NCBI GenBank assembly: GCA_963931305.1
Contig: OZ006994.1
Location: 741,444 to 805,443 of the forward strand
Direction: 5' to 3'
From: an uncultured Bacilli bacterium
Lineage (GTDB): Bacteria; Bacillota_I; Bacilli_A; RF39; UBA660
DNA: 64,000 nucleotides
The position numbers and the translations under genes were made by a program. This document shows positions 2,982 to 62,756 of this stretch, in pieces. Position 1 is the stretch's first letter. Each line of letters starts with the position of its first letter. Under the pieces are notes generated by a model. That model was not told the origin of the DNA. It did not search any database and worked only from the letters and a program-made list of their open reading frames with translations.

Positions 2982-4259
2982 TTAATACATAGTTGTTCTA
3001 TCTTTAAAGTAATCAGTAGCTCCACCACTCCATGGGAAGTTGACTGTTTCTCTTGGATCATATGTATTTGCAATAAATGTATTCCAACTCATATAATCTT
3101 TTAAATAATGGCCATTTGCAATTCCAAAGTGAAGATGCTGTGCAGTAGAACAAGAATCCCACCATTCTGAATTTCTATCTCCACCCATAATACCTATTTG
3201 GGTATTTTGAGTAACCACTTGACCAACACTTACATCAATTCTTCTTAAATGTGCATATTCTGTTGTATATTTTTTACCATTTACTGTATGAATAATAAAG
3301 ATCATATTTCCCCCACAGTTAGAACGATAACGTGTTCCAATTACAACCCCATCGGCTGCTGGATAAATAGGAACGGTTCCCTTCTGTGATACATCTAATG
3401 CTTCATGTAATTCATAATTTCCAGTTGCTGGATTTAAACGATATCCATATTCACTTGTTACATAACCTTCAATAATCGGTCTTAAGAAACTTGTTCCAGC
3501 TGGTAGTGTTCCGATTCCAACAGAACCCGTTCCAGGGCTACTACTTCCACCACTTACACTTGGAACACGTCCACATGTTTTTGTATCTTCATTATCAGAA
3601 CATCCCATATTTTCTAATACTTTAATTGCCTCTTTTTGCATTTCAATCTCATCTTGAGCAGACATTTTAATATCTGTAACTTCTGTTAAATGCTCCCCTA
3701 ATTTTTTCGTTTCTTCTTCTAAAGCTGCCTGTTTTTCTTTTAAACTTGTTTGCTTAGAATCCATTTCTTTCTGTTTCTTTTTTGACGTTTCTACGGTTTT
3801 ATCATATTCATCAATTAAATTTTCATTATAAGCAGAAACTTGTTCTGAAACTGCCATACGATAGATAAAATCTGTAAAATCTTGAGCACCAAAAGCATAC
3901 TCTAAATAAGCATTCTCACCACTAGAAATCTGTACAAAATTAATCACTTTTCTTACTTCATCATCTAACTTTGCACTTTTTTTATTTAATTCATCAATTT
4001 CCCCTTGTAATTTTTTCACATCTTCTTGTAATTGAGATACTTCTTTTTTCAAACTTTCTACTGTTTGATTATTTGTATCAATTTGATCTTGTGTCTTTTC
4101 TGCCTCTGCACTTGCATTTTTATACTCTTCTTCCGCTTGTGCTAATTTTGCTTTTAAATCTCCAAGTGTTTCTGCTTCTACTTGGAAAGGTTGTATTATA
4201 ATTGAAAAAATAATAGCTGCTATTAAAATGAAAACAAATGTTTTAACACCTAATTTCAT
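2982..4259 (-). CDS. Secreted coiled-coil M23 (LytM) peptidoglycan metalloendopeptidase, PcsB/EnvC-like architecture
   Basis: The likely start is the ATG at 4259, preceded by an AGGTGA SD. It has a signal/TM segment and a long Lys/Glu coiled coil. The C-terminal M23 motifs are HEALDVS, YAHL and HLHFGI. Confidence 0.8.
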   Translation of the reverse strand: MKLGVKTFVFILIAAIIFSIIIQPFQVEAETLGDLKAKLAQAEEEYKNASAEAEKTQDQIDTNNQTVESLKKEVSQLQEDVKKLQGEIDELNKKSAKLDDEVRKVINFVQISSGENAYLEYAFGAQDFTDFIYRMAVSEQVSAYNENLIDEYDKTVETSKKKQKEMDSKQTSLKEKQAALEEETKKLGEHLTEVTDIKMSAQDEIEMQKEAIKVLENMGCSDNEDTKTCGRVPSVSGGSSSPGTGSVGIGTLPAGTSFLRPIIEGYVTSEYGYRLNPATGNYELHEALDVSQKGTVPIYPAADGVVIGTRYRSNCGGNMIFIIHTVNGKKYTTEYAHLRRIDVSVGQVVTQNTQIGIMGGDRNSEWWDSCSTAQHLHFGIANGHYLKDYMSWNTFIANTYDPRETVNFPWSGGATDYFKDRTTMY

Positions 4260-4365
4260 AACATCACCTAGCCTTACATATATCATTATACTACTTTTTT
4301 CTTATTTTTCCATTAGAAAAAATTAGAAGTTTTATATTTGACATTTCTTGACAAAAAAAGATTCA

Positions 4366-9177: not shown

Positions 9178-9251
9178 TGGTGCCGCTTGTAAGAATCGAA
9201 CTTACCATTGAGCCTTACCATGGCTCCGTTATACCACTTAACTAAAGCGGC
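9178..9251 (-). tRNA. tRNA-Thr (anticodon GGU)
   Basis: I folded it by hand as a cloverleaf. The acceptor stem is GCCGCTT/AAGCGGC, the D stem GTTA/TAAC and the anticodon stem GAGCC/GGCTC. The anticodon loop is ATGGTAA, the T arm is GTAAG-TTCGATT-CTTAC, and CCA is encoded. Confidence 0.9.
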
Positions 9252-11870: not shown

Positions 11871-11947
11871 GTCCTCGTAGCTCAGTAGGATAGAGCAATT
11901 GCCTCCTAAGCAATAGGTCGTTGGTTCGATTCCAATCGAGGACGCCA
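11871..11947 (+). tRNA. tRNA-Arg (anticodon CCU)
   Basis: I folded it by hand. The acceptor stem is GTCCTCG/CGAGGAC, the anticodon stem ATTGC/GCAAT and the anticodon loop CTCCTAA. The T arm is GTTGG-TTCGATT-CCAAT, and CCA is encoded. Confidence 0.9.
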
Positions 11948-11957
11948 TATAGGAATA

Positions 11958-11981
11958 AACAAGGTTGTACCTTGTTTTTTT
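11958..11981. terminator. Bidirectional intrinsic terminator (tRNA-Arg on plus, GH3 gene on minus)
   Basis: An 8-bp stem (AACAAGGT / ACCTTGTT) with a 3-nt loop is followed by a T-run on the plus strand and flanked by an A-run on the other side. Confidence 0.7.
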
Positions 11982-13353
11982 ATAATAAGCCTTTATAGTA
12001 TTTCCAAGCAATCACACGAAATACTGCATGATCAATGATACTTTCATCAATTAAATCTTGTTCTAAAGCACTTTTAATCGATTGAATACTTGTTTCATAA
12101 TCAGTTGTAATAATTAAATCATTACCAGCTAATAATGCTTTAATAACAACATTTGGAATATCAGAAACAGCTTTCATAGCAAGATCATCGGTCATAACAA
12201 TTCCCGTAAATTGTAATTGATCACGTAATAAATTATGGACATTAATAGAAAGAGAAGCGGGATTAGACTCATCCATATTTACAATTACATTATGACTAAT
12301 TAAAACAGCTTCTGCTCCAGACTGAATACCTGCTTCAAATGGTGGTAATGCATCTTTTACTATTTCATCATAACTTCTTTTATCAATTGCCATTCCAGTA
12401 TGTGTGTCGACATTATTACCATATCCAGGGAAATGTTTTAATGTATACGAAACACTTGTTTCTTTACTAGCAGAAATCACCGTTTCAGCATATCTAGATG
12501 TAAGTGATGCATCCTCTCCTAATGTTCTTTCATACATATAATCTTCTGGATTTGTAGAAACATCGACAACAGGCGCTAAATTAAGATTTATACCATAATT
12601 CATTAATAATTGACTTTTTTCTAATGTATCTTTTTCTATCATAGCAAATCCCCCAGCTTGATATAATTCTTGTGGAGATTGAAACTTATGAGAAGCTAAA
12701 TTAGGATTACTACTAATTCTAACTACAGTACCACCCTCTTCATCTACTGCCGTTAAAATAGGAATCTTAGAAACACTTTGTAACTGTGATATCATCTCTT
12801 TTACCTGGTCTTGTGTCTTATCTTTAAAATCTCTTCCAAATAGTACATAACCACCAAATTGGTATTGTTCTAATATAGATACTGCATTTTCTGAAGGATA
12901 ACGAACAAGTAACAATTGGGCAATTTTCTCATCTAATGTCATTTGTTGCATGGTCTGATATGCTTCTTCATAATATGATTGAAATATTCCATTATCTTGC
13001 CATAACATTGGAACGATACTTTCATTTTCTTCCTTCTTTTCTTCTTCTGGCATCATTTTCTTGTAGTTCAAAACAGTATATATTTTCTTTTGCTTTTCTG
13101 TTTGATAATGAGTATTATATTTGATATTTAATTGATCTCCTACTTGAATATCATAACTATCTTTCATATCAAAATAATATTGTTTATGATTTTGATCTTT
13201 TACTATAAAGAAATCTTCCCCTATATATGTAACAGTTGCTGTCATAGTTATCTCTTTATATTTCTCACCATTTTTTTCGATGAATTTCCATACCGCAAAG
13301 CCAACTGCAAAACAAATCAACAAAATTAATACACTCAATATAAACTTTTTCAT
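11980..13353 (-). CDS. Membrane-anchored glycoside hydrolase family 3 N-terminal-domain protein (beta-N-acetylhexosaminidase/NagZ-like)
   Basis: The likely start is the ATG at 13353, preceded by an AGGTGA SD. It has a TM anchor and the GH3 blocks ILTAVDEEGG, KHFPGYG and MTDDLAM. Confidence 0.8.
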   Translation of the reverse strand: MKKFILSVLILLICFAVGFAVWKFIEKNGEKYKEITMTATVTYIGEDFFIVKDQNHKQYYFDMKDSYDIQVGDQLNIKYNTHYQTEKQKKIYTVLNYKKMMPEEEKKEENESIVPMLWQDNGIFQSYYEEAYQTMQQMTLDEKIAQLLLVRYPSENAVSILEQYQFGGYVLFGRDFKDKTQDQVKEMISQLQSVSKIPILTAVDEEGGTVVRISSNPNLASHKFQSPQELYQAGGFAMIEKDTLEKSQLLMNYGINLNLAPVVDVSTNPEDYMYERTLGEDASLTSRYAETVISASKETSVSYTLKHFPGYGNNVDTHTGMAIDKRSYDEIVKDALPPFEAGIQSGAEAVLISHNVIVNMDESNPASLSINVHNLLRDQLQFTGIVMTDDLAMKAVSDIPNVVIKALLAGNDLIITTDYETSIQSIKSALEQDLIDESIIDHAVFRVIAWKYYKGLL

Positions 13354-13422
13354 TTTCTCACCTATTCTCACTCTAATATTATTAGACCAGATAAAAAAAG
13401 AGTATCACTACTCTTATTATAA

Positions 13423-20157: not shown

Positions 20158-21624
20158 TCAGCCGATTATAAACGGATTCCCTTTCGTTCCATCTCCTCCT
20201 GTTATTTCGATATCTGATTTCAAATAGAGAACTGGACGCACCCCATTAAGGCCGCCAGTGTGCGCACGGTCGCCACCGAACCCGCCAACGCCCTGATCGA
20301 AAACCGCATACCAGACAAGGTACGAGCGGGCACCAGACTCCGCAGAAAACTCATTCATTGTCCAATAACTTATTTCTTCATTAAAAGTTGTTAAATATGA
20401 CCCACATGTTTCTCTTGGTGTATTTCCTCTTATTGCATTATATTCATCTGTTGCTGATGTACAGGCAATATTCGTACTTGCTCTCAGTAAATCACTGACA
20501 TTCACAAGTCCTACATTTCCTGTCCACTGGTACATCTTTTCTCCTGCGATATTCTTTTGGATACTATCATTTCCACTTACATCTAAGAACTGTACACTTC
20601 CGATATTAAATGCATGGCTTTGTACTTGTGTTTTTGCTGTTCCATCTAATGTTGGATAGTATGTATTATTTAGATATTCTTTGATACTGGAATCCTCTGT
20701 TACTGTTCCACTATACTTTCCATCTGGTGTTTGAAATGTTCCACTTACTGCTGCGAAGACTCCACAGCCTCTGCTTGGACTTGTACAATATGTATTATTT
20801 TCTGTTAAACGATGATTTGATACATCGTATGCCATAGGCGTATAATTAGCATTCTGTGGTAATATCTCATCTCTGATGATTTTATATGTTCCATCTGTTT
20901 CTTTAGCGATGATTCTCCATAATTCATTATTGAATTGAATGTAATTGTTTGGTTCGCTTCCACGATAGATATATCGTCCTGCTTCATATTGGTCTTCATA
21001 GAGTCCATCTCCAGAAGTAACTACTTCTACTCCTTGTCCTCCTATATCTACTCCATCACTTGGAAGTGGTCCTACTGGTACTCCATCATCACTTTGTTCA
21101 TATGTTAATGTGATTTCTATTTCTTTTTGCATGTTTGTTTCACTGAAATCTACATTCTCATCCCAATACACTTTTACTTGAAATGTTTTATCTTCTCCTG
21201 CAAGCAGTGGATCTCCTACCCTGATGTTTTCAACACTCACTTTAATTGCTTTTGGATCTTTATTATTGTTTTCACTTACTCCATCAATACCAGATAATAC
21301 TGCATCCAAGTCTCCTTGGTTTTCTACAACGACATCATATGTCGCACTTGCTCCTGGTTGTGTTAGATTGACATCTAATGTTAATGTTGTAAGATCTGTG
21401 ATTTCTTTTCTTGTTGTAGTCGCATTGTTCATTTCTTTTTCTTCTGCACTCGTAAACAATATTTTCCAATTAGATGTAATCTGGGCTGTTCCATTGATAT
21501 CTAATTGTTGACTTAATACTGCATATCCAATTCCTATCATTAGAAACATAGCAATACATAGACTACCAACTAGAAAATATTTCTTATGTTCTGAATTCAT
21601 TCTCTTTCTTTCTACTTTTCTCAT
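20158..21624 (-). CDS. Exported/anchored surface protein with a C-terminal DUF1566/lectin-like module that carries a compositionally aberrant segment
   Basis: AAGGAG SD precedes the ATG at 21624. It has an N-terminal basic region plus TM/signal segment. The central motif is GDGLYEDQYEAGRYIYRGSEPNNYIQFNNELWRII. The C-terminus reads YWTMNEF...VWYAVFDQGVGGFGGDRAHTGGLNGVRPVLYL. The present stop codon lies in the IS end. Confidence 0.6.
   Translation of the reverse strand: MRKVERKRMNSEHKKYFLVGSLCIAMFLMIGIGYAVLSQQLDINGTAQITSNWKILFTSAEEKEMNNATTTRKEITDLTTLTLDVNLTQPGASATYDVVVENQGDLDAVLSGIDGVSENNNKDPKAIKVSVENIRVGDPLLAGEDKTFQVKVYWDENVDFSETNMQKEIEITLTYEQSDDGVPVGPLPSDGVDIGGQGVEVVTSGDGLYEDQYEAGRYIYRGSEPNNYIQFNNELWRIIAKETDGTYKIIRDEILPQNANYTPMAYDVSNHRLTENNTYCTSPSRGCGVFAAVSGTFQTPDGKYSGTVTEDSSIKEYLNNTYYPTLDGTAKTQVQSHAFNIGSVQFLDVSGNDSIQKNIAGEKMYQWTGNVGLVNVSDLLRASTNIACTSATDEYNAIRGNTPRETCGSYLTTFNEEISYWTMNEFSAESGARSYLVWYAVFDQGVGGFGGDRAHTGGLNGVRPVLYLKSDIEITGGDGTKGNPFIIG
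20162..20170. repeat. Right copy of the 9-bp target-site duplication CCGATTATA
   Basis: See the feature at 18662-18670. This copy encodes the last residues (I-I-G) of the adjacent gene. Confidence 0.8.
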
Positions 21625-36800: not shown

Positions 36801-36921
36801 AATTTCCCTCCTTACAATTCTAAGACTCGCCTAAAAGGTAACAATTGTTTTAAAACCTTGTTCGTGCGGTTGTAGCGACCAAAGGGGTACTACACAATAT
36901 AAAATTTTAACAGATAAATCC
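36801..36921 (-). promoter_or_regulatory. Probable structured L21-operon leader
   Basis: A 120-nt untranslated region upstream of rplU has G/C-rich paired segments (GUAGUACCCCUUUGGUCGCUACAACCGCACGAACAAGG). Its position matches the L21 leader known in Bacillota. I did not fold it rigorously. Confidence 0.4.
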
Positions 36922-42740: not shown

Positions 42741-44939
42741 CTAGTTTCTTGTCAATTTCTTTTCTAAGATAACTTCACTCATATTCCCATTTTGTCTCAT
42801 TTGTTCTTGAAATTCTATTTCTGTTATATAATTTAATACATATCGTACTGTTTCATATAGATAATAGCGTAACACATCCACTGGTATTTGATATTTCATG
42901 GCGATTTCTTCTGTACTCATAGTTGTAAGTTCATTTGATAGCCCATAAAATAAATCTAATACTTTTGCTTGAGATGAAGTAAGTGGACACATATTTAAAT
43001 AAATACTCTGCTTTACTGGTAAACGTAATGCTCTAATTTCTCGATCTTGAATTTGTTTATCAGAAGATGGTTCAATAGAAATATTTTGAAGTGCTTTTAC
43101 AATTGCTGGATTCGTATAAGAATTTGCTTTTAAAACAGTTTCAGAAGCATAATGAATTTTTTTCAATATAGAATCTTTTGAACAGTGATAAATACTTGCT
43201 AATTCGTCAATCGTTTGTTTCTCTCCAGTTAAACCGTAATAAGCATCTAATAACTTCATTTCTCTTTTTGATAATTGAAAACTACCTAAAATAAATTTTT
43301 CTTTCAATTTTCTTTTCATTTCATTTATTTCTGGATGCTCTTCTTTTTTTCCATATTGTAATTTTTTAATTAAGTGATAAATCTTATTTTTTAATATATT
43401 GCGATTAGAAATAGAATACATTTGTTGTAATTGTTCTAATGAATGTTTTGTGGTTCCAATACCATAAAATAAACATAGTAATGTTCTTTCAGCAGAAGAA
43501 AGTTCTGCTGAATTATCTAACATACTTTTCACTTCTCCAGGAAATAGAGAAATTAATTCTTGTTCTTTTTTATCAACCTGTACTTCTTTTATAGAGCTTG
43601 GAAATTTTGGCAATGATTTTTTATTCGCAATTGCCTGTTCACATTTATTTAAATAATCACATACAATCAAATACTTCTTACTAAATTCTGGGTATCGTAT
43701 ATGTTGATCTAGTGGTATTTTCTTTAAACATTCATATGCAGTTTGAAACTCAACTGGAATAAATGGTTGGTAAATATAATAGATATCTTTTTTTGTTTCT
43801 TTTGTTTTTAATTTATTATTTTTATCTTTTAAGGCCATTAATTTTGTTAATATATGATCAATACTTCTTTGAAATGACATTCTCTTTAAACTATGAGCAA
43901 TCTTAGTATATACTTCCTCTTCGTTTTTTGAATATAACATAGCCTTTATCACAGAATGTTCTTTTTCAGTAAATCGCATTGGATTTGCTCGATATATTTC
44001 TTCCATATCTTTTATCGTATTTACATATAAACATAATTTTTTGAGCTGTTGATTCATTACTAGTATTTTATTCGTCATCTGAGATATATTATCTTGTAAT
44101 TCTGAAATCGTAAATTGATTTTTACAGCAAAGATATAATTCATGTAAATTATTTACTTGTGATACATATTCCATAATCATTTGTTCTTGTGGAGAAAATA
44201 GTAAGCGATTCTTTTCAAATAATAAATAATTAGTTTTTAGTGTCGATAAATGATCTTTTCTTTCTGCTATTAAAATATTTGGGTTTTTTACTATCTTTAA
44301 TAAAGAGGCTGCTATAGCACGAATAGATTGTTTAGATAATTTATTTTCTAAAATTGGAAATACTTGATAAACCATATGAATATTTAAAAAGGTTTTTATG
44401 AAAATCGTTTCTTTTAATGTAAAATAATTCGTATCATGTTCATACAATAATTTCAAATCAACACGAGATTGAAAAAGTTCACACATTGCTTTTGTAGGCA
44501 TATTGTCATCTTGCAATTTCTTATTTATATTTTTCATAAAAGTTTCCATTTGATTTTTAGAATAGATTGTTTTTAACATTTGTTGTGCTTCTATATATGT
44601 TTGAGAAGAAAAAATAATATCTAATATTTTTCTTTCTTCTGGTGCAAATAAAAATCTATTTTCTTCATAAACCAAAAGATTCTGTTCTTTAAATTTTTCA
44701 AATTTTTGGGTTTGTTTTTCTTTTTCTTCTTGAACATTACGATATAACTGTATAGTACGCTCGATACTATCCATCACTGAACCGATATATTTAGGTGGGC
44801 ATATTTTCTCTAATGCAAGATAAAATTGATTCTTATCTGATACTTTACAATATAATTGAAAACAAGTTTGATAAAATTCTAACACTTCTTGTTGTTCTGA
44901 TAGTTCTATTTGTACTTTTTCCTTAAATTTCGATTCCAT
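42741..44939 (-). CDS. Large cytoplasmic protein built from at least six tandem sigma-70-region-4/LuxR-like HTH modules
   Basis: An AAGGAGGG SD precedes the ATG at 44939. The repeated modules are shown by ERTLLCLFYGIGT..SLEQLQQMYSISNRNILKNKIYHLIKKL, REMKLLDAYYGLTGEKQTIDELASIYHCSKDSILKKIHYA and SQAKVLDLFYGLS..STEEIAMKYQIPVDVLRYYLYE. Three more divergent N-terminal copies are also present (RFLFAPEERKILD.., RLLFSPQEQMIME.., RFTEKEHSVIKAM..). Confidence 0.5.
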   Translation of the reverse strand: MESKFKEKVQIELSEQQEVLEFYQTCFQLYCKVSDKNQFYLALEKICPPKYIGSVMDSIERTIQLYRNVQEEKEKQTQKFEKFKEQNLLVYEENRFLFAPEERKILDIIFSSQTYIEAQQMLKTIYSKNQMETFMKNINKKLQDDNMPTKAMCELFQSRVDLKLLYEHDTNYFTLKETIFIKTFLNIHMVYQVFPILENKLSKQSIRAIAASLLKIVKNPNILIAERKDHLSTLKTNYLLFEKNRLLFSPQEQMIMEYVSQVNNLHELYLCCKNQFTISELQDNISQMTNKILVMNQQLKKLCLYVNTIKDMEEIYRANPMRFTEKEHSVIKAMLYSKNEEEVYTKIAHSLKRMSFQRSIDHILTKLMALKDKNNKLKTKETKKDIYYIYQPFIPVEFQTAYECLKKIPLDQHIRYPEFSKKYLIVCDYLNKCEQAIANKKSLPKFPSSIKEVQVDKKEQELISLFPGEVKSMLDNSAELSSAERTLLCLFYGIGTTKHSLEQLQQMYSISNRNILKNKIYHLIKKLQYGKKEEHPEINEMKRKLKEKFILGSFQLSKREMKLLDAYYGLTGEKQTIDELASIYHCSKDSILKKIHYASETVLKANSYTNPAIVKALQNISIEPSSDKQIQDREIRALRLPVKQSIYLNMCPLTSSQAKVLDLFYGLSNELTTMSTEEIAMKYQIPVDVLRYYLYETVRYVLNYITEIEFQEQMRQNGNMSEVILEKKLTRN

Positions 44940-45021
44940 AAACCAATCCCTCCTTAAATTATCGCTTATTATATACTTATTTTTAAAACAATGCAAATAA
45001 AAACTGATACTTGGTATCAGT

Positions 45022-49301: not shown

Positions 49302-50796
49302 GGTTCTATAATAAATAGTGTTGGTGAGTAATTACTGACATTATTTTTAATTAATAAAAATGAGTCATATCAGAATCCTATGATACAATGTAATTGGTAA
49401 AACAAACATTGAAAGGATCTGATTAAATGACTCATACTGATTATACTAAAAAAATACTAAATATTAAAGATGAAAATATATATTTTTACGATAATTGTTT
49501 AGAAATTAAAAAAATCAATGGTGTTGATACCAAAATCTTTCATGCTTTTCTTACTTATACTCCTGACTTTTGTCCCCATTGCGGATGCGTGAATGGTGGC
49601 TTTCATGATATTATTAAATGGAATTTTAAAAGAAACTGTAAAATTAAAATTACGAAAGTTGCCAATTATAATACCATTCTACTTTTAGATAAACAAAGAT
49701 TCTTTTGTAAACATTGTAATAAAACCTTTACTGCTTCTACGAATGTAGTTGACTTTCACAAACAAATTTCTAATGATACAAGATTATCTGTTATTCTAGA
49801 TTTAATGCATAAAGGTTCTGAAAAAGATATCTCTATTAGAAATAATATTTCTACAAATTCTGTTAATAGGATTTTAGATGAAATTTCTAATGATACCATT
49901 GTTAAAAACAATGGATTATTACCAGAAGTATTAGGGATTGATGAATTTAGTGCTACAAAAGATACTATATCTAAATTAGCCTTTATTATTGTAGATCAAA
50001 CAAATAGAAATATTTTTGATATAAATCATAGTAGAAAGTCTTTAGATATTAATAAATACTTTAGAAATTATTCTAAAAAAGAACGAGATAAAGTTAAATT
50101 CATTACTTTAGATTTATATCAACCATATTATAAATTAATGCATTCTTTATTTAGAAATGCCATTTTAATTCCTGATAGATTTCATATTGTAATTCAAGCT
50201 AGAAATGCATTAGATAAAACAAGGATCAACTTATGTAAAAAATCCAATCCCAATTATAAAAAATTCAAAAAATACTGGAAATTACTTTTAAAAGATAAGC
50301 GTGATCTAGATAAAAAGAAGAAGAAATATCAAACATGTTTTAAAAAAGAAATGACGCAATATGATATTGTTTCTTACTTATTAAATACAAATGAGGAATT
50401 ATATGAAACTTACCAAATATATCAATCCCTTTTATATTCGATTGATACTAGGAATAAAGAAATATTCTTAAGTATTATTCGTTGTAAAAATAAAAAAATA
50501 TCTAATCATATGAGAAAAGCTCTTAAAACATTTAAGAACATGAGAAAATATATTTTAAATGCATTTGATTATGAATATTCTAATGGAATTGTGGAAGGAA
50601 CTAATAATTTAATTAAACAAATCAAACATACTGCTTATGGTTATAGAAAATTTAAACATTTAAAAGCTAGAGTTATGTTAATTAAAGGATTATATAATCC
50701 TATTAAAGCATAAGAAAAGAGAACTAAATTTAGTCCTCTTAACCAGTTCATTTATCATTCGTTTTTGGTTCCACCAACACTATTTGACATTGAACC
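49302..50796 (+). mobile_element. Intact ISL3-family insertion sequence (1495 bp)
   Basis: The 25-bp imperfect inverted repeats are GGTTCTATAATAAATAGTGTTGGTG and GGTTCAATGTCAAATAGTGTTGGTG (the second in reverse complement). They are flanked by the 8-bp direct repeat CTAATACC (49294-49301 and 50797-50804). Confidence 0.85.
49427..50713 (+). CDS. ISL3-family transposase
   Basis: It has the N-terminal zinc-finger pattern (CPHCG...CKHC) and a DDE_Tnp_ISL3 body (GIDEFS, LDLYQPY, DRFHIV, SNGIVEGTNNLIKQIK). Confidence 0.9.
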   Translation: MTHTDYTKKILNIKDENIYFYDNCLEIKKINGVDTKIFHAFLTYTPDFCPHCGCVNGGFHDIIKWNFKRNCKIKITKVANYNTILLLDKQRFFCKHCNKTFTASTNVVDFHKQISNDTRLSVILDLMHKGSEKDISIRNNISTNSVNRILDEISNDTIVKNNGLLPEVLGIDEFSATKDTISKLAFIIVDQTNRNIFDINHSRKSLDINKYFRNYSKKERDKVKFITLDLYQPYYKLMHSLFRNAILIPDRFHIVIQARNALDKTRINLCKKSNPNYKKFKKYWKLLLKDKRDLDKKKKKYQTCFKKEMTQYDIVSYLLNTNEELYETYQIYQSLLYSIDTRNKEIFLSIIRCKNKKISNHMRKALKTFKNMRKYILNAFDYEYSNGIVEGTNNLIKQIKHTAYGYRKFKHLKARVMLIKGLYNPIKA

Positions 50797-59048: not shown

Positions 59049-59252
59049 TTAGTTGTAACTTCTTTCCCTACGTTCCTTTTTACGACTATTCTTTCTAGCC
59101 TCTTCTTTACGAATTCTTCTTTTTACCCCAGGTTTTAAATATCCTTCCTGACGTTCACGCACTTTTTTAAGGGAGCCGTTTTTAATGCCTCTTTGTTTCA
59201 TCATTCTTAAAGCACTATCGAGTCCATCTTTTCTCACAACTACTCTTTCCAT
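59049..59252 (-). CDS. rpsU: 30S ribosomal protein S21
   Basis: It has a basic 67-aa sequence (VVVRKDGLDSALRMMKQ...YLKPGVKRR). A TTGAAA-17-TATAAT promoter and a GGGAGGG SD lie upstream. Confidence 0.9.
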   Translation of the reverse strand: MERVVVRKDGLDSALRMMKQRGIKNGSLKKVRERQEGYLKPGVKRRIRKEEARKNSRKKERRERSYN

Positions 59253-59353
59253 GACATTTCCCTCCCTTCTTTTGCTAGAGCTATTATACCATGTTTATCC
59301 CCTATTTTCAACAAAAAAGATAAGAAATATAAGAAATTTGTCAAATAATCACA

Positions 59354-59518
59354 TTACTTATAAGAGCACATATTTCCATCCATTACCCTACGAAGTGACG
59401 AACCAAGACTACGCCCTAATTCTAATAGAATTGTAATTCCTCTTACCATAGAAGATAACATAGAACCACTGATATCTCCTCCATATATCCTTTTTAATTC
59501 TTCTTTTGATAGTTTCAT
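59354..59518 (-). CDS. Double-glycine-leader bacteriocin precursor, peptide 2 (54 aa; not in the ORF track)
   Basis: My translation reads MKLSKEELKRIYGG/DISGSMLSSMVRGITILLELGRSLGSSLRRVMDGNMCSYK. The ATG overlaps the stop of peptide 1 (ATGA). Confidence 0.7.
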   Translation of the reverse strand: MKLSKEELKRIYGGDISGSMLSSMVRGITILLELGRSLGSSLRRVMDGNMCSYK

Positions 59519-59655
59519 TCACAGATTTTAGGGTGGACAAAGCCATCTATTACACCGATTACAAAGGATACAATACTACCAATTCCTAATATAATTCCAA
59601 TATTGATTTCTCCTCCATACACTTGTTTTAATTCTTCTGTTTCTAATTTTCTCAC
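59515..59655 (-). CDS. Double-glycine-leader bacteriocin precursor, peptide 1 (46 aa; not in the ORF track)
   Basis: My translation from the GTG at 59655 (AAGGAG SD 9 nt upstream) reads (M)RKLETEELKQVYGG/EINIGIILGIGSIVSFVIGVIDGFVHPKICE. The GTG overlaps the stop of the 137-aa gene (GTGA). Confidence 0.7.
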   Translation of the reverse strand: MRKLETEELKQVYGGEINIGIILGIGSIVSFVIGVIDGFVHPKICE

Positions 59656-60065
59656 GATATCACACTCCTTATCCAATCTTGTAATTGTTGATATTTTGAT
59701 TGTTTCTTTGTCATCTCATACAATATATAATTACCTTTCTTATTTCTTTCTTTTCCTAAATTAACTTTCAGTGTAACAAGATACATACTTTGCCCATCTT
59801 CTCTTTCAAGTTCTTTAGAAGAGATATAGGTAACTTGACATAATGTGTGACCACAATTCCATGTTTGAATGGTATTTAATTCTTCTTTTGTGAGATAAGT
59901 TTGTAAATGGTTTTTCTCACTCATAACTCCATAGACCATTCTCTTTTTTGTTGTTGGTAACAAGAGAAATAAAACGCTAAAAATGAGTAAAAAAATGCTT
60001 GTTATTATTAATAATATATTGGCATTTCTATTTAGTGTTTGTTCGATTGTCCATACATTTCTCAT
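59652..60065 (-). CDS. 137-aa single-TM protein of the bacteriocin operon (candidate export accessory or immunity protein)
   Basis: It has an N-terminal TM helix and a small beta-rich ectodomain. Its start overlaps the ABC transporter stop (ATGA). I have no confident family assignment. Confidence 0.45.
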   Translation of the reverse strand: MRNVWTIEQTLNRNANILLIITSIFLLIFSVLFLLLPTTKKRMVYGVMSEKNHLQTYLTKEELNTIQTWNCGHTLCQVTYISSKELEREDGQSMYLVTLKVNLGKERNKKGNYILYEMTKKQSKYQQLQDWIRSVIS

Positions 60066-62140
60066 TCTTTTCCCTCCACAATTTTTTGTTCTCTCAAAAT
60101 AAGATGACGACCAAATAAATCGCGATTATCAAGACGATGAGAAACAATAATAATCGTCTTTTGAAAAAAAGTATAAAATAAGTTTTTCATAATCTGCCGT
60201 TCTAATAAGACGTCCATTTCACTAAAACCTTCATCGATTAATAATACCTCAAATGGTTGTAATAAGAGTCGTGCTAGAACAATCCGTTGTCTTTCTCCAC
60301 CTGATAAATTATAACCATGGTTTGTTATCATCTGTTGTAAGCCGAGCGGATGTTTTTTTATCAGCCGATCAACACATGTACACTTCAGTATCTTCACCAA
60401 TGTTTCTTTTTTGACGGTACGTCCCAATGTAATATTTTCAAATAACGTTCCTTGAAATAAAGTCTCTTCTTGAGTTAATAAAATAATCTTTGATTGTAAC
60501 TGTTCTTTTTGATAATCACATAAATCTAACTGATTTATAAATATGTGATGACGCCTAATTTCTAAACGTCCACTTATACATTTTAAGAAAGTACTTTTAC
60601 CACTTCCACTATCTCCTGTTAATAAAATTTTCTCTCCCTGATATATGTTTAAAAAAATATTTTGAAATACATATTGATCATTGTAATAATCATATGTGAA
60701 ATTTTGGCAGGAAAGTTGTTGAAAAGAAAATTCCAAAAACAAAGAAGAAGTTTCCTCTTTTATAAAATATGGACGAATTCTATCATAGTAATATTTCACT
60801 TTCATACTAACATCACTCATCTGTGATGTATTTTGTAATATAGGAACAATGGATTGCCATACGGTAATAAACAAAATGAAATTTCCCATCGTCATTTTTT
60901 CTGTACTTGTCATCAAACTAAAATATAAAAATAAATATAAATGAAACGATGTAAATATCAATTGGTATACTAATTCCATTCGTTTATGTTTGTGAAAATA
61001 ACGATACATCGCTTCATTAAAATGAAATAGTTTTTTTTGATACTTATGTATGAAATTAGATGTTAGATGGGCGGTTGTAATAAAAGAACGATTTTCCATA
61101 CTTTCAAGAAAAAAAGTATGATTCATATTCATTTCTTGACGACATGCTTTTTCTAGACGTTGTAATTTTTTTGCCATCCATAAATAATAACAAACTGTAA
61201 ATAAGAAAAATGGGAATAAGAAGATAGACGTTTGTATTTGTATCAAACATAAACAAATAAATAAGAAAAAAGCAAGTAGAAAATCAAAGAAAAGAAATTG
61301 TATGGATTGAAATAGTGACGTAATCCATACATACAACTCTTCTCTTTTTTCGGTAAAGAAGGAAGGTTGACTTTGATACCTGCTTTCTCTATGATCACTT
61401 AAAATAGAATGATACAAATAAACATCTAGGAGAGTTTGAAGTTTTAATTGCAGAGAAAATAAATATTTTTGGGTATAATATGCATAACAATTGCGAAATA
61501 TATATATCACGAAAAAGATAAAAAACACTAAATAAAAATAATCTTTTTCTTTTTGTAAAGTAATACCATTCATAAAATATTTTGCAGTTAATGAGAGTGT
61601 GAGTTGTAAACATAAAAATATGATGATTAAAACAAATCCCAAAGATATCGTTTTTTTATTTTGTTTTATAAATGAGGTTAATAGATGGTTGATTGTTTGA
61701 TTTTTCTCATAGGTAATTACGCCTGTTGGAATCATATGAATCATAATTCCTGTAAATTGACTTTGGAATTGTTTCCATGATAGGACAAGAATTCCTTCTT
61801 TTGGATCTCCAATCCATATTTTTTCTGTTTTAGGTATGATACGATACACAATGACATAGTGATTTTCTAAAGCTTCATTTTTCATAACAGCAATACTTGG
61901 TAAAATAAACTTGCCTTCTACCCAATGTTTCCAGTCATAACGTTTTCCTTCTGCATAAAAACCATGATCATTCAAAAAAGTAATAATATGATAAGCACTT
62001 GTTCCTTGATATGTTAAGTGAAGTTCTTCTTTTAATTTCTTATAATCATAATCACCTTGATAATATAATAAAATACTTTTTACACAAGCAGGACCACAAT
62101 CGTTTTTTTCTTCTTGAATATAACATGGAAATTTTCTCAT
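60062..62140 (-). CDS. Bacteriocin-processing/export ABC transporter with an N-terminal C39 peptidase domain (LagD/ComA/LcnC class)
   Basis: The C39 catalytic Cys is in QEEKNDCGPACVKSIL and the His in HYVIVYRI. It has a six-TM domain. The Walker A is GDSGSGKST, the signature LSGGERQR and the Walker B LLIDEG. Confidence 0.9.
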   Translation of the reverse strand: MRKFPCYIQEEKNDCGPACVKSILLYYQGDYDYKKLKEELHLTYQGTSAYHIITFLNDHGFYAEGKRYDWKHWVEGKFILPSIAVMKNEALENHYVIVYRIIPKTEKIWIGDPKEGILVLSWKQFQSQFTGIMIHMIPTGVITYEKNQTINHLLTSFIKQNKKTISLGFVLIIIFLCLQLTLSLTAKYFMNGITLQKEKDYFYLVFFIFFVIYIFRNCYAYYTQKYLFSLQLKLQTLLDVYLYHSILSDHRESRYQSQPSFFTEKREELYVWITSLFQSIQFLFFDFLLAFFLFICLCLIQIQTSIFLFPFFLFTVCYYLWMAKKLQRLEKACRQEMNMNHTFFLESMENRSFITTAHLTSNFIHKYQKKLFHFNEAMYRYFHKHKRMELVYQLIFTSFHLYLFLYFSLMTSTEKMTMGNFILFITVWQSIVPILQNTSQMSDVSMKVKYYYDRIRPYFIKEETSSLFLEFSFQQLSCQNFTYDYYNDQYVFQNIFLNIYQGEKILLTGDSGSGKSTFLKCISGRLEIRRHHIFINQLDLCDYQKEQLQSKIILLTQEETLFQGTLFENITLGRTVKKETLVKILKCTCVDRLIKKHPLGLQQMITNHGYNLSGGERQRIVLARLLLQPFEVLLIDEGFSEMDVLLERQIMKNLFYTFFQKTIIIVSHRLDNRDLFGRHLILREQKIVEGKE

Positions 62141-62210: not shown

Positions 62211-62756
62211 CTAATTTTCTTTTTCATATATATGTAACCATTTAGAACCATATCTTTTTTCTTTTAATAATTTTAATGAAGTTTCAATTTTTTCTTCATT
62301 ATCTGTTTCACAGACTACTTTAACACCTGGTTTTAATAAATGATATGTATCTAACTCTTCTAAAATCTGTGTCATAAAGTGATATTTATAAGGTGGATCT
62401 AAAAATATGACTTGAAACTCTATATTACGTTCTTTAAAATAACGGAGTGCTTCTAAATAATCTTTTTTTAAAACAACTGCTTCTTCTGTAATTTGTAAAG
62501 TTCGTAAATTTTTTTCAATTGTCTGAATACAGATTTGATTAAAATCTACAAAATATACTTTTTTCGCACCATTACTAATTGCTTCTATTCCTAAATTTCC
62601 AGAACCACTGAATAAATCTAGGCAACAAGATTCCGGAATATCATTTTGTAACATGGCAAACATAGATTCTTTCACTCGATCCATGGTTGGTCTAGTCCCA
62701 GCAATTTTATGACCATCTAAAAATCTTCCTTTATATTTTCCACTAATGACTCTCAC
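62211..62756 (-). CDS. rsmD: 16S rRNA (guanine966-N2)-methyltransferase RsmD
   Basis: It has MRVISGKYKGR, RPTMDRVKESMF, DLFSGSGNLGIEA and DPPY. Confidence 0.9.
   Translation of the reverse strand: MRVISGKYKGRFLDGHKIAGTRPTMDRVKESMFAMLQNDIPESCCLDLFSGSGNLGIEAISNGAKKVYFVDFNQICIQTIEKNLRTLQITEEAVVLKKDYLEALRYFKERNIEFQVIFLDPPYKYHFMTQILEELDTYHLLKPGVKVVCETDNEEKIETSLKLLKEKRYGSKWLHIYEKEN

Follow-up and report, generated by a model that had tools for sequence, protein, structure and literature searches.

A putative class IIb-like two-peptide bacteriocin family of uncultured gut bacteria with a single invariant cysteine in each peptide

Two-peptide (class IIb) bacteriocins are encoded by adjacent genes in one operon, together with a dedicated ATP-binding cassette (ABC) transporter, an accessory protein of unclear role and an immunity gene; their precursors carry double-glycine (GG) leaders of 15-30 residues, and a GxxxG motif occurs in every known member (PMC2850506). 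Among them, gallocin A, made by the gut bacterium Streptococcus gallolyticus from two GG-leader precursors, represents a disulfide-containing subgroup and needs its cysteines for activity; most class IIb peptides contain no cysteine, the intramolecular bonds of gallocin A were reported as a first, and its immunity peptide GIP resembles the gallocin peptides themselves (PMC10100652). We analysed a stretch of 64,000 nucleotides from an uncultured Bacilli bacterium (contig OZ006994.1, positions 741,444 to 805,443; hereafter the window), in which two short minus-strand genes, pep1 and pep2, follow the genes for an exporter with a C39 peptidase domain and for a 137-aa membrane protein. The locus is a four-gene, translationally coupled cassette, probably for the secretion of a membrane-active two-peptide bacteriocin of the class IIb type.

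As in lactococcin G and plantaricin EF/JK, the precursor genes lie side by side in one operon and encode GG leaders and helical GxxxG peptides, and, as in lactococcin G, a dedicated ABC exporter and an accessory-type gene belong to the same operon. The window thereby shows adjacency, GG leaders, a C39 exporter and GxxxG in both peptides, and, with the accessory-type gene, all the class IIb features listed in that review but a recognisable immunity gene. Unlike class IIb systems (PMC2850506), it has no recognisable immunity gene, and pep1 is anionic; unlike most class IIb peptides, which have no Cys (PMC10100652), each peptide of the family represented in the window has one invariant Cys. In contrast to those of lactococcin G and the plantaricins, the hosts are uncultured gut bacteria (Mycoplasmatota or Bacilli) of low guanine-plus-cytosine (GC) content, and in many of them the cassette is fixed at an rsmD-rpsU site. 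A first-pass annotation, made from the letters of the window, had called the pair a candidate two-peptide class II bacteriocin. The operon, the GG leaders, the C39 exporter, the GxxxG motifs and the similarity to the model TIGR03949 speak for that call, and the missing recognisable immunity gene in the window speaks against it. The cassette is composed as follows.

60062..62140, minus strand: ABC exporter, 692 aa, with an N-terminal C39 peptidase domain (Pfam and alignment to ComA)
59652..60065, minus strand: 137-aa single-pass membrane protein, overlapping both neighbours
59665..59670, minus strand: Shine-Dalgarno sequence AAGGAG of pep1, 9 nt ahead of the start codon (read directly)
59515..59655, minus strand: pep1 precursor (alpha-type), 46 aa (direct reading and open reading frame listing)
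59354..59518, minus strand: pep2 precursor (beta-type), 54 aa (direct reading and open reading frame listing)

Since start and stop codons overlap at every junction (ATGA at the exporter stop and 137-aa protein start, GTGA at the 137-aa protein stop and pep1 start, ATGA at the pep1 stop and pep2 start), the four genes form one translationally coupled unit, and the overlaps suggest roughly equal production of their products. On the minus strand, pep1 begins with GTG at 59655-59653 and stops with TGA at 59517-59515, and pep2 runs from ATG at 59518 to TAA at 59354. Both open reading frames (ORFs) are exactly those given by the first-pass annotation, which had also placed an AAGGAG 9 nt upstream of the GTG, where it indeed lies (59670-59665). 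The pep1 leader, M-RKLETEELKQVYGG (15 aa, 59655-59611), precedes the 31-aa mature peptide EINIGIILGIGSIVSFVIGVIDGFVHPKICE, and the pep2 leader, MKLSKEELKRIYGG (14 aa, 59518-59477), precedes the 40-aa mature peptide DISGSMLSSMVRGITILLELGRSLGSSLRRVMDGNMCSYK, so that the mature lengths predicted earlier were reproduced. Both leaders have hydrophobic residues at -4, -7 and -12, Glu at -8 and GG at -2/-1, in agreement with the proposal that both N-termini are double-glycine leaders. The three GxxxG motifs listed before, GIILG, GVIDG and GRSLG, were all found, as was the single Cys described close to the C-terminus of each mature peptide, which is followed by one residue in pep1 and by three in pep2. 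The pair had been described as one very hydrophobic and one amphipathic, cationic peptide. This fits mature pep1 in its hydropathy (grand average of hydropathy 1.38, very hydrophobic) and mature pep2 in full (amphipathic, hydrophobic moment up to 0.66, net charge +2), with the qualification that pep1 is anionic (net charge -2). In an AlphaFold2 (AF2) model, pep2 forms one long helix of 30 residues (18-47; predicted local distance difference test score, pLDDT, about 94), with Cys51 in a flexible tail. The description of the two genes as unannotated holds for the track of long ORFs, from which the length threshold alone kept them, but not for public assemblies, where the exact pep1 and pep2 proteins are called on 54 and 33 contigs, respectively; their relatives are named 'hypothetical protein' or 'unknown' in annotation.

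Several lines of evidence indicated that these small genes are real. A leader regular expression, run in six frames over the 64-kb window, matched pep1 and pep2 alone. A search with the exporter protein found relatives in two further species, L001 (93% identity) and L002 (85%), and public contigs with peptide variants gave the loci L005-L008; the four-gene order between rsmD and rpsU is kept in L001, L002 and L005-L008. When the DNA of the pep1/pep2 region was aligned with that of relatives, the substitutions were mostly synonymous, and the pep1 start codon varied between GTG, ATG and TTG among the window, L001 and L002, with the Shine-Dalgarno sequence unchanged. The ratio of nonsynonymous to synonymous substitution rates (dN/dS), calculated by the Nei-Gojobori method against four related loci where dS permitted an estimate, was 0.06-0.23 for pep1, 0.008-0.13 for pep2 and 0.11-0.30 for the exporter, the peptide values being equal to or below those of the exporter. 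The first-pass annotation had proposed that its call would fail if the ORFs and the GG motif were not conserved in related genomes, and both turned out to be widely conserved. On these comparisons, pep1 and pep2 are genuine genes under purifying selection, and chance ORFs are ruled out by the dN/dS values and the conservation.

The C39-domain exporter reported just upstream of the peptides is present, with an intact catalytic triad. Pfam recognised Peptidase_C39 (3e-24) and ABC_tran (7e-24), with a weak ABC_membrane match (13.5 bits), and the protein aligned over its full length, including the whole membrane domain, to ComA of S. pneumoniae (8hf7, 1e-48). Its Gln9, Cys15, His94 and Asp112 correspond to the residues of the oxyanion hole and catalytic site in ComA, and the Walker A, signature, Walker B and H-loop motifs of the ATPase are all intact. 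The exporter thereby has the layout of a peptidase-containing ABC transporter (PCAT), namely an N-terminal C39 domain with Cys/His/Asp, a six-helix membrane domain and ATPase motifs. The order of C39, membrane domain and ATPase is that of ComA (PDB 8hf4-8hf7) and PCAT1 (4ry2), and the triad and ATPase motifs are kept, although the identity to these proteins is about 25-30%. In NCBIfam, the nearest models were peptide cleavage and export families, every one of which scored below its cut-off; the best was NF045998 (Mycoplasma bovis Mbov_0121 family; 237 bits against a cut-off of 500). The exporter is predicted to cleave the leaders after Gly-Gly and to export both peptides.

We placed the peptides against curated models. 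Against TIGR03949 (class IIb, lactobin A/cerein 7B), pep1 scored 20.9 bits, slightly below the cut-off of 21.5, with its leader and glycine-rich hydrophobic region aligned to profile positions 3-37; none of its 7 close variants outscored it. Among 60 pep1 relatives, 52 matched TIGR03949 at E <= 0.01 (best 4.2e-8), many of the wider relatives would exceed the cut-off, and 28 matched the lactococcin G-beta model too. The pep1 tail, F-x-IGVIDG-(Y/F)-x-RP-x-x-C, lies outside the region matched by TIGR03949, and pep2 is not covered by that model. The leader model TIGR01847 gave 14.5 bits for pep1 and 13.8 for pep2, slightly under its cut-off of 15.7, PF10439 (Bacteriocin_IIc) gave 13.0 bits for pep1 (gathering cut-off 27.1) and no match for pep2, with 9 of 111 pep2 relatives matching at E <= 0.01, and the Pfam model of ComC gave 12.4 bits (cut-off 20.4) over the leader only. 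The matches of pep2 to curated models were confined to its leader, and a PDB sequence search with profiles of both peptides returned chance matches (E > 0.5). From these searches, three protein types are without a curated model, namely the pep2 type, the pep1 tail motif and the 137-aa partner.

The first-pass annotation recognised neither mature sequence, which understates the case, since both peptides are members of an uncharacterised family that is very large and for the most part syntenic. Word-indexed homologue searches with pep1, pep2 and the 137-aa protein returned the narrow clade of the window only (51-100% identity), and the wider pep2 family was seen only in an exhaustive profile search, which, with six pep2 variants, yielded 204 clusters at E <= 1e-3, nearly all of 49-57 aa and matched over their full length. 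No model in Pfam or NCBIfam covers this pep2 family. We also scanned a degenerate DNA pattern for GR[ST][LF]G[ST][SA]IRR-x6-C over a species-representative genome collection; at least 120 stretches matched, of which at least 119 are true pep2-type genes in species-representative gut metagenome-assembled genomes (MAGs). Of the 118 evaluable loci among the matches listed, at least 115 have a pep1-type gene immediately ahead of pep2, a count that includes variants with an 'AG' cleavage site (102 loci by the strict rule), and pep2 has no adjacent pep1 in L073, L092 and L096. By these counts, the pep1-pep2 pairing is close to obligatory, and well over 100 uncultured species of low-GC gut bacteria carry the pair.

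The pep2 consensus is GG-x-IS-...-GR-x-x-GS-x-IRR-x6-C; across 111 representatives, the second Gly of the GG site (G14), G39 and C51 are invariant, and G13, G35 and R44 are nearly so. For pep1, the consensus is GG-G-x-S-x-G-...-F-x-IGVIDG-(Y/F)-x-RP-x-x-C-N, with A10, the GG site, F31, G38 and C45 invariant in the family alignment and G34, D37, R41 and P42 nearly invariant. Each family retains one conserved GxxxG, GVIDG in pep1 and GRSLG in pep2, whose glycines are invariant or nearly so. The Cys is invariant in the 111 pep2 representatives and in the 60 pep1 relatives. Among the matches listed, a single Cys was counted in 95 of 102 mature pep1 peptides and in 116 of 119 mature pep2 peptides; one or two residues come after the Cys in 97 of the 102 pep1 peptides, and no more than three in 118 of the 119 pep2 peptides. 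The invariance of one Cys per peptide family strengthens the idea, raised in the first-pass annotation, of a disulfide-linked heterodimer. The peptides of gallocin A differ in having two Cys each, an intramolecular bond and a helical hairpin, and pep2 shows no sequence similarity to them; with a single Cys per peptide, any disulfide of pep1 or pep2 must be interchain.

In the window, the cassette lies between rsmD and rpsU; the rsmD side also has thrS and ylbD/ylbE-like genes, and the rpsU side yqeY, rpsB and tsf. When the context was counted over loci with enough flanking sequence, among the matches listed an ABC exporter gene was found upstream of the peptide pair in 95 of 96 loci, rpsU within 1.2 kb downstream in 65 of 108, yqeY downstream in 57 of 98, rsmD upstream in 27 of 63 and a C39 N-terminal motif with Cys (strict regular expression) in 65 of 76. 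The cassette has changed faster than its surroundings. Between the window and L007, the exporter is 53% identical, the 137-aa protein 51% and pep1 53%, as against 81% for rsmD and 97% for rpsU (window 60062-62140 compared with the flanks 62211-62756 and 59049-59252), and across the wide family the exporter is 24-30% identical and rsmD near 50%. Faster divergence of the cassette than of its flanks is the pattern expected of antagonism loci, as read from these identities. The downstream edge of the cassette is marked by one further element, which lies outside it.

59283..59311, minus strand: rpsU promoter-like site, TTGAAA, 17 nt, TG-TATAAT

This site has 11 of 12 matches with an extended -10 and is conserved in L001, L002, L005 and L007. 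A pep2 variant on contigs of the L007-type clade (P0012, 91 aa) lacks the stop codon, and its frame continues across the promoter region of rpsU (…FYEWLLKMTNFLYFLLKIGDKH…); it is either a natural stop-loss allele or an assembly error.

The 137-aa protein has one N-terminal membrane helix followed by a beta-rich domain outside the cell, and it matched no family in Pfam or NCBIfam. Its AF2 model (pLDDT 77) comprises a helix at 2-35, five strands and a C-terminal helix; a Foldseek search of this model against the PDB gave no match at E <= 0.001, the weak lead being a streptococcal membrane-fusion protein at rank 8 (probability 0.72, template modelling score 0.31). In about 71 of 91 related loci among the matches listed, the slot between the exporter and pep1 holds an ORF of 130-155 aa with the same arrangement of N-terminal membrane helix, beta-rich outside domain and C-terminal helix. 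Indeed, a profile of 69 such slot ORFs, built excluding the window's own clade, matched the 137-aa protein of the window at 23.9 bits (E 1.6e-9, for a search space of one sequence). The protein may be an accessory factor of the exporter or an immunity factor. Accessory proteins of the ComB/LcnD type are about 450 aa long, compared with 137 aa here. A Cys-x4-Cys pair at residues 71-76 is invariant in the window's clade, with varying residues between the cysteines (CGHTLC, CGYQLC, CGRRRC, CGKKKC). A thiol-oxidoreductase role as a general feature of the 137-aa protein was rejected, since Cys-x4-Cys is missing outside this clade.

Some relatives carry a third small gene that could bear on immunity. 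It overlaps the pep2 stop in 34 of 117 related loci among the matches listed (L093, L119, L164, L083 and L150 are examples) and is absent from the window (59253-59353). The product is 49-62 aa long and has no GG leader, a basic N-terminus, one membrane helix and a pep2-like G[RKQ]xxG[ST]x[ILF]R motif; among the same matches, 17 of the 34 have a Cys at the pep2 spacing. It is plausible that this protein is a membrane-tethered outside copy of the beta peptide and a candidate immunity factor acting by mimicry, an idea that draws on the precedent of the gallocin immunity peptide GIP (PMC10100652). In this respect, the leaderless pep2-like gene of the relatives parallels the bacteriocin-resembling immunity peptide of gallocin A.

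From these features, we propose how a two-peptide bacteriocin of this kind would work. The exporter would cleave after Gly-Gly and release the 31-aa, very hydrophobic pep1 and the 40-aa, amphipathic and mildly cationic helix of pep2. Outside the cell, the two helices would pair through GVIDG of pep1 and GRSLG of pep2, and the conserved Asp of the pep1 motif and Arg of the pep2 motif could make an inter-helix salt bridge. A parallel arrangement of the helices would bring the invariant Cys residues of the C-terminal tails close together, and the pair could be locked as a disulfide heterodimer with a predicted monoisotopic mass of 7580.98 Da, compared with 3250.80 Da for mature pep1 and 4332.19 Da for mature pep2. 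Two different short helical antimicrobial peptides joined by one cystine occur in animals as distinctin and halocidin; these are eukaryotic and unrelated in sequence and biosynthesis, and they serve as an analogy for the proposed covalent dimer only. The complex would then enter the membranes of related bacteria and cause leakage, probably via a conserved membrane receptor, which we propose by analogy with other class II bacteriocins. The 137-aa single-pass protein would assist the exporter, protect the producer, or both, and in about a third of the related loci, the window not being one of them, a leaderless, membrane-anchored pep2-like peptide would confer immunity by mimicry. A more specific proposal is that the pair is the first example of a two-peptide bacteriocin with a covalent link, an interchain disulfide between the C-terminal cysteines, encoded at one core-genome position throughout an order-level lineage of uncultured gut bacteria with reduced genomes, and that some members protect themselves by a membrane-anchored beta copy that traps the alpha peptide; this is tentative and less likely than not.

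Several observations weigh against a bacteriocin of this type. The window contains no gene of a known immunity family in Pfam or NCBIfam, and class IIb operons always have one. Neither pep2 nor the 137-aa protein belongs to a curated bacteriocin, immunity or accessory family, and the window pep1 is under every curated cut-off and is anionic, unlike the typical cationic partner. All carriers of the cassette are uncultured MAGs, and its fixed site among housekeeping genes across a very wide clade would fit a conserved physiological role. With regard to the disulfide, its formation in the anaerobic gut is not assured, the cassette has no thiol oxidase gene, the two paired Cys of the 137-aa protein occur in the clade of the window only and are absent from the wider same-slot proteins, and one singleton pep2 variant (P0013) has Ser in place of Cys with a partner pep1 that retains its Cys.

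On account of the fixed housekeeping location and the missing immunity gene, the main alternative is that the exported peptides serve the producer itself, as a conserved two-subunit surface complex inserted back into, or retained on, its own membrane with the 137-aa protein as partner; possible roles are membrane organisation, control of ion leak, adhesion and host interaction. Occupation of one chromosomal site (rsmD / rpsU-yqeY) in many species looks more like a core trait of a lineage than a weapon that varies between strains, over 100 species share the invariant motifs, the window lacks an immunity gene, and the leaderless pep2 paralogue found in some relatives (the 34 of 117 loci among the matches listed) could be a third subunit. 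However, the GG leader, the C39 exporter, the GxxxG pair and the similarity to TIGR03949 are all traits of bacteriocin or pheromone export, and the cassette diverges much faster than its flanks. Moreover, streptococcal bacteriocin clusters also occupy conserved loci, and we know of no precedent for housekeeping peptides exported via a C39 ABC transporter. We consider a self-directed complex unlikely.

Still less probable is the explanation that pep1 and pep2 are independent one-peptide (class IId-like) bacteriocins that share an exporter, with the Cys serving to form homodimers or having no structural role. The three loci with pep2 but no adjacent pep1 (L073, L092, L096) and the natural pep2 variant without Cys (P0013) would agree with it, but at least 115 of 118 loci have the two genes next to each other, usually overlapping, both peptides contain a single invariant GxxxG, and where each of two co-secreted partners keeps one invariant Cys, a link between them is the simplest explanation. 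It is the near-obligate pairing that makes this explanation unlikely. That the peptides are double-glycine signalling pheromones of the ComC, BlpC or PlnA type, exported by a ComA-like transporter with the kinase elsewhere, is very improbable because of the lack of a nearby kinase or regulator and the long membrane-type helices: the closest solved relative of the exporter by sequence is indeed the competence-pheromone exporter ComA, and there are weak leader-level matches to models of ComC, the pheromone VP1 and the EntF induction factor, but these cover the leader alone and are below the cut-offs, the flanks contain neither a histidine kinase nor a response regulator over about 6 kb in each direction (in line with the first-pass annotation, which had noted no adjacent cognate kinase), the mature peptides of 31 and 40 aa with one glycine-rich membrane-type helix contrast with short soluble pheromones, and an obligate pair of different GxxxG peptides is a trait of two-peptide bacteriocins. 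The class IIb-like reading is hence the one we prefer; the finding of the paired genes is genuine and its interpretation largely right, with a bacteriocin as the probable product.

All carriers are gut MAGs labelled Bacilli, Tenericutes, Mollicutes or Mycoplasmatota incertae sedis. One abundant carrier is 'Clostridium sp. CAG:433', which GTDB presumably places in the order RF39. The cassette was also seen on contigs titled 'uncultured Muribaculaceae' (L071, L075, L086, L091-L093, L105, L118, L123), which have a GC content of 22-29% and, where tested, Bacilli-type rpsU/yqeY 54-63% identical to those of the window; judged by sequence, the Muribaculaceae label on these Third Party Annotation (TPA) bins looks wrong. 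Elsewhere in the window, minus-strand ORFs at 472-1791, 2982-4286 and 11980-13371 encode a polysaccharide deacetylase, an M23 peptidase and a GH3 enzyme. These genes hint at cell-wall-type polysaccharide metabolism in a host with Mycoplasmatota-labelled relatives, and, given them, a wall-less host, as the 'Mycoplasmatota' labels might imply, was not adopted. An ISL3-family transposase of 428 aa (49427-50713, plus strand; Pfam DDE_Tnp_ISL3, 2e-50) belongs to the small minority of plus-strand genes in an almost wholly minus-strand window, and the minus-strand ORFs at 42741-44996 (751 aa) and 20158-21624 (488 aa) had no Pfam match at E <= 1e-8. An Rfam scan of the window detected an L21 leader (36813-36881, minus strand) and tRNAs at 9181-9251 (minus strand) and 11871-11944 (plus strand), with no match near the cassette.

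In the literature, we found no paper printing the pep1 or pep2 motifs, no report of an interchain disulfide in a two-peptide bacteriocin, and nothing relevant on bacteriocins in RF39 or Acholeplasma. Annotation and bacteriocin-mining tools currently call the pep1, pep2 and 137-aa families 'hypothetical'. The unnamed, mostly syntenic family described here is class IIb-like and comes from uncultured gut bacteria, and its unusual feature is the single invariant Cys per peptide. Class IIb bacteriocins are thought to act as non-covalent helix pairs; if the proposed linkage is true, nature would have arrived at a new structural solution in the form of a disulfide-locked heterodimer, one that offers a ready template for stable two-chain antimicrobials. 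Humans, ruminants, rabbits and poultry are the hosts of the carriers, which are uncultured gut bacteria with small genomes and low GC content, and the peptides are short enough for synthesis, so that their biology could be tested without culturing the organisms. A conserved secreted peptide pair with its own exporter would be among the few functions readable from these genomes that clearly face outward.

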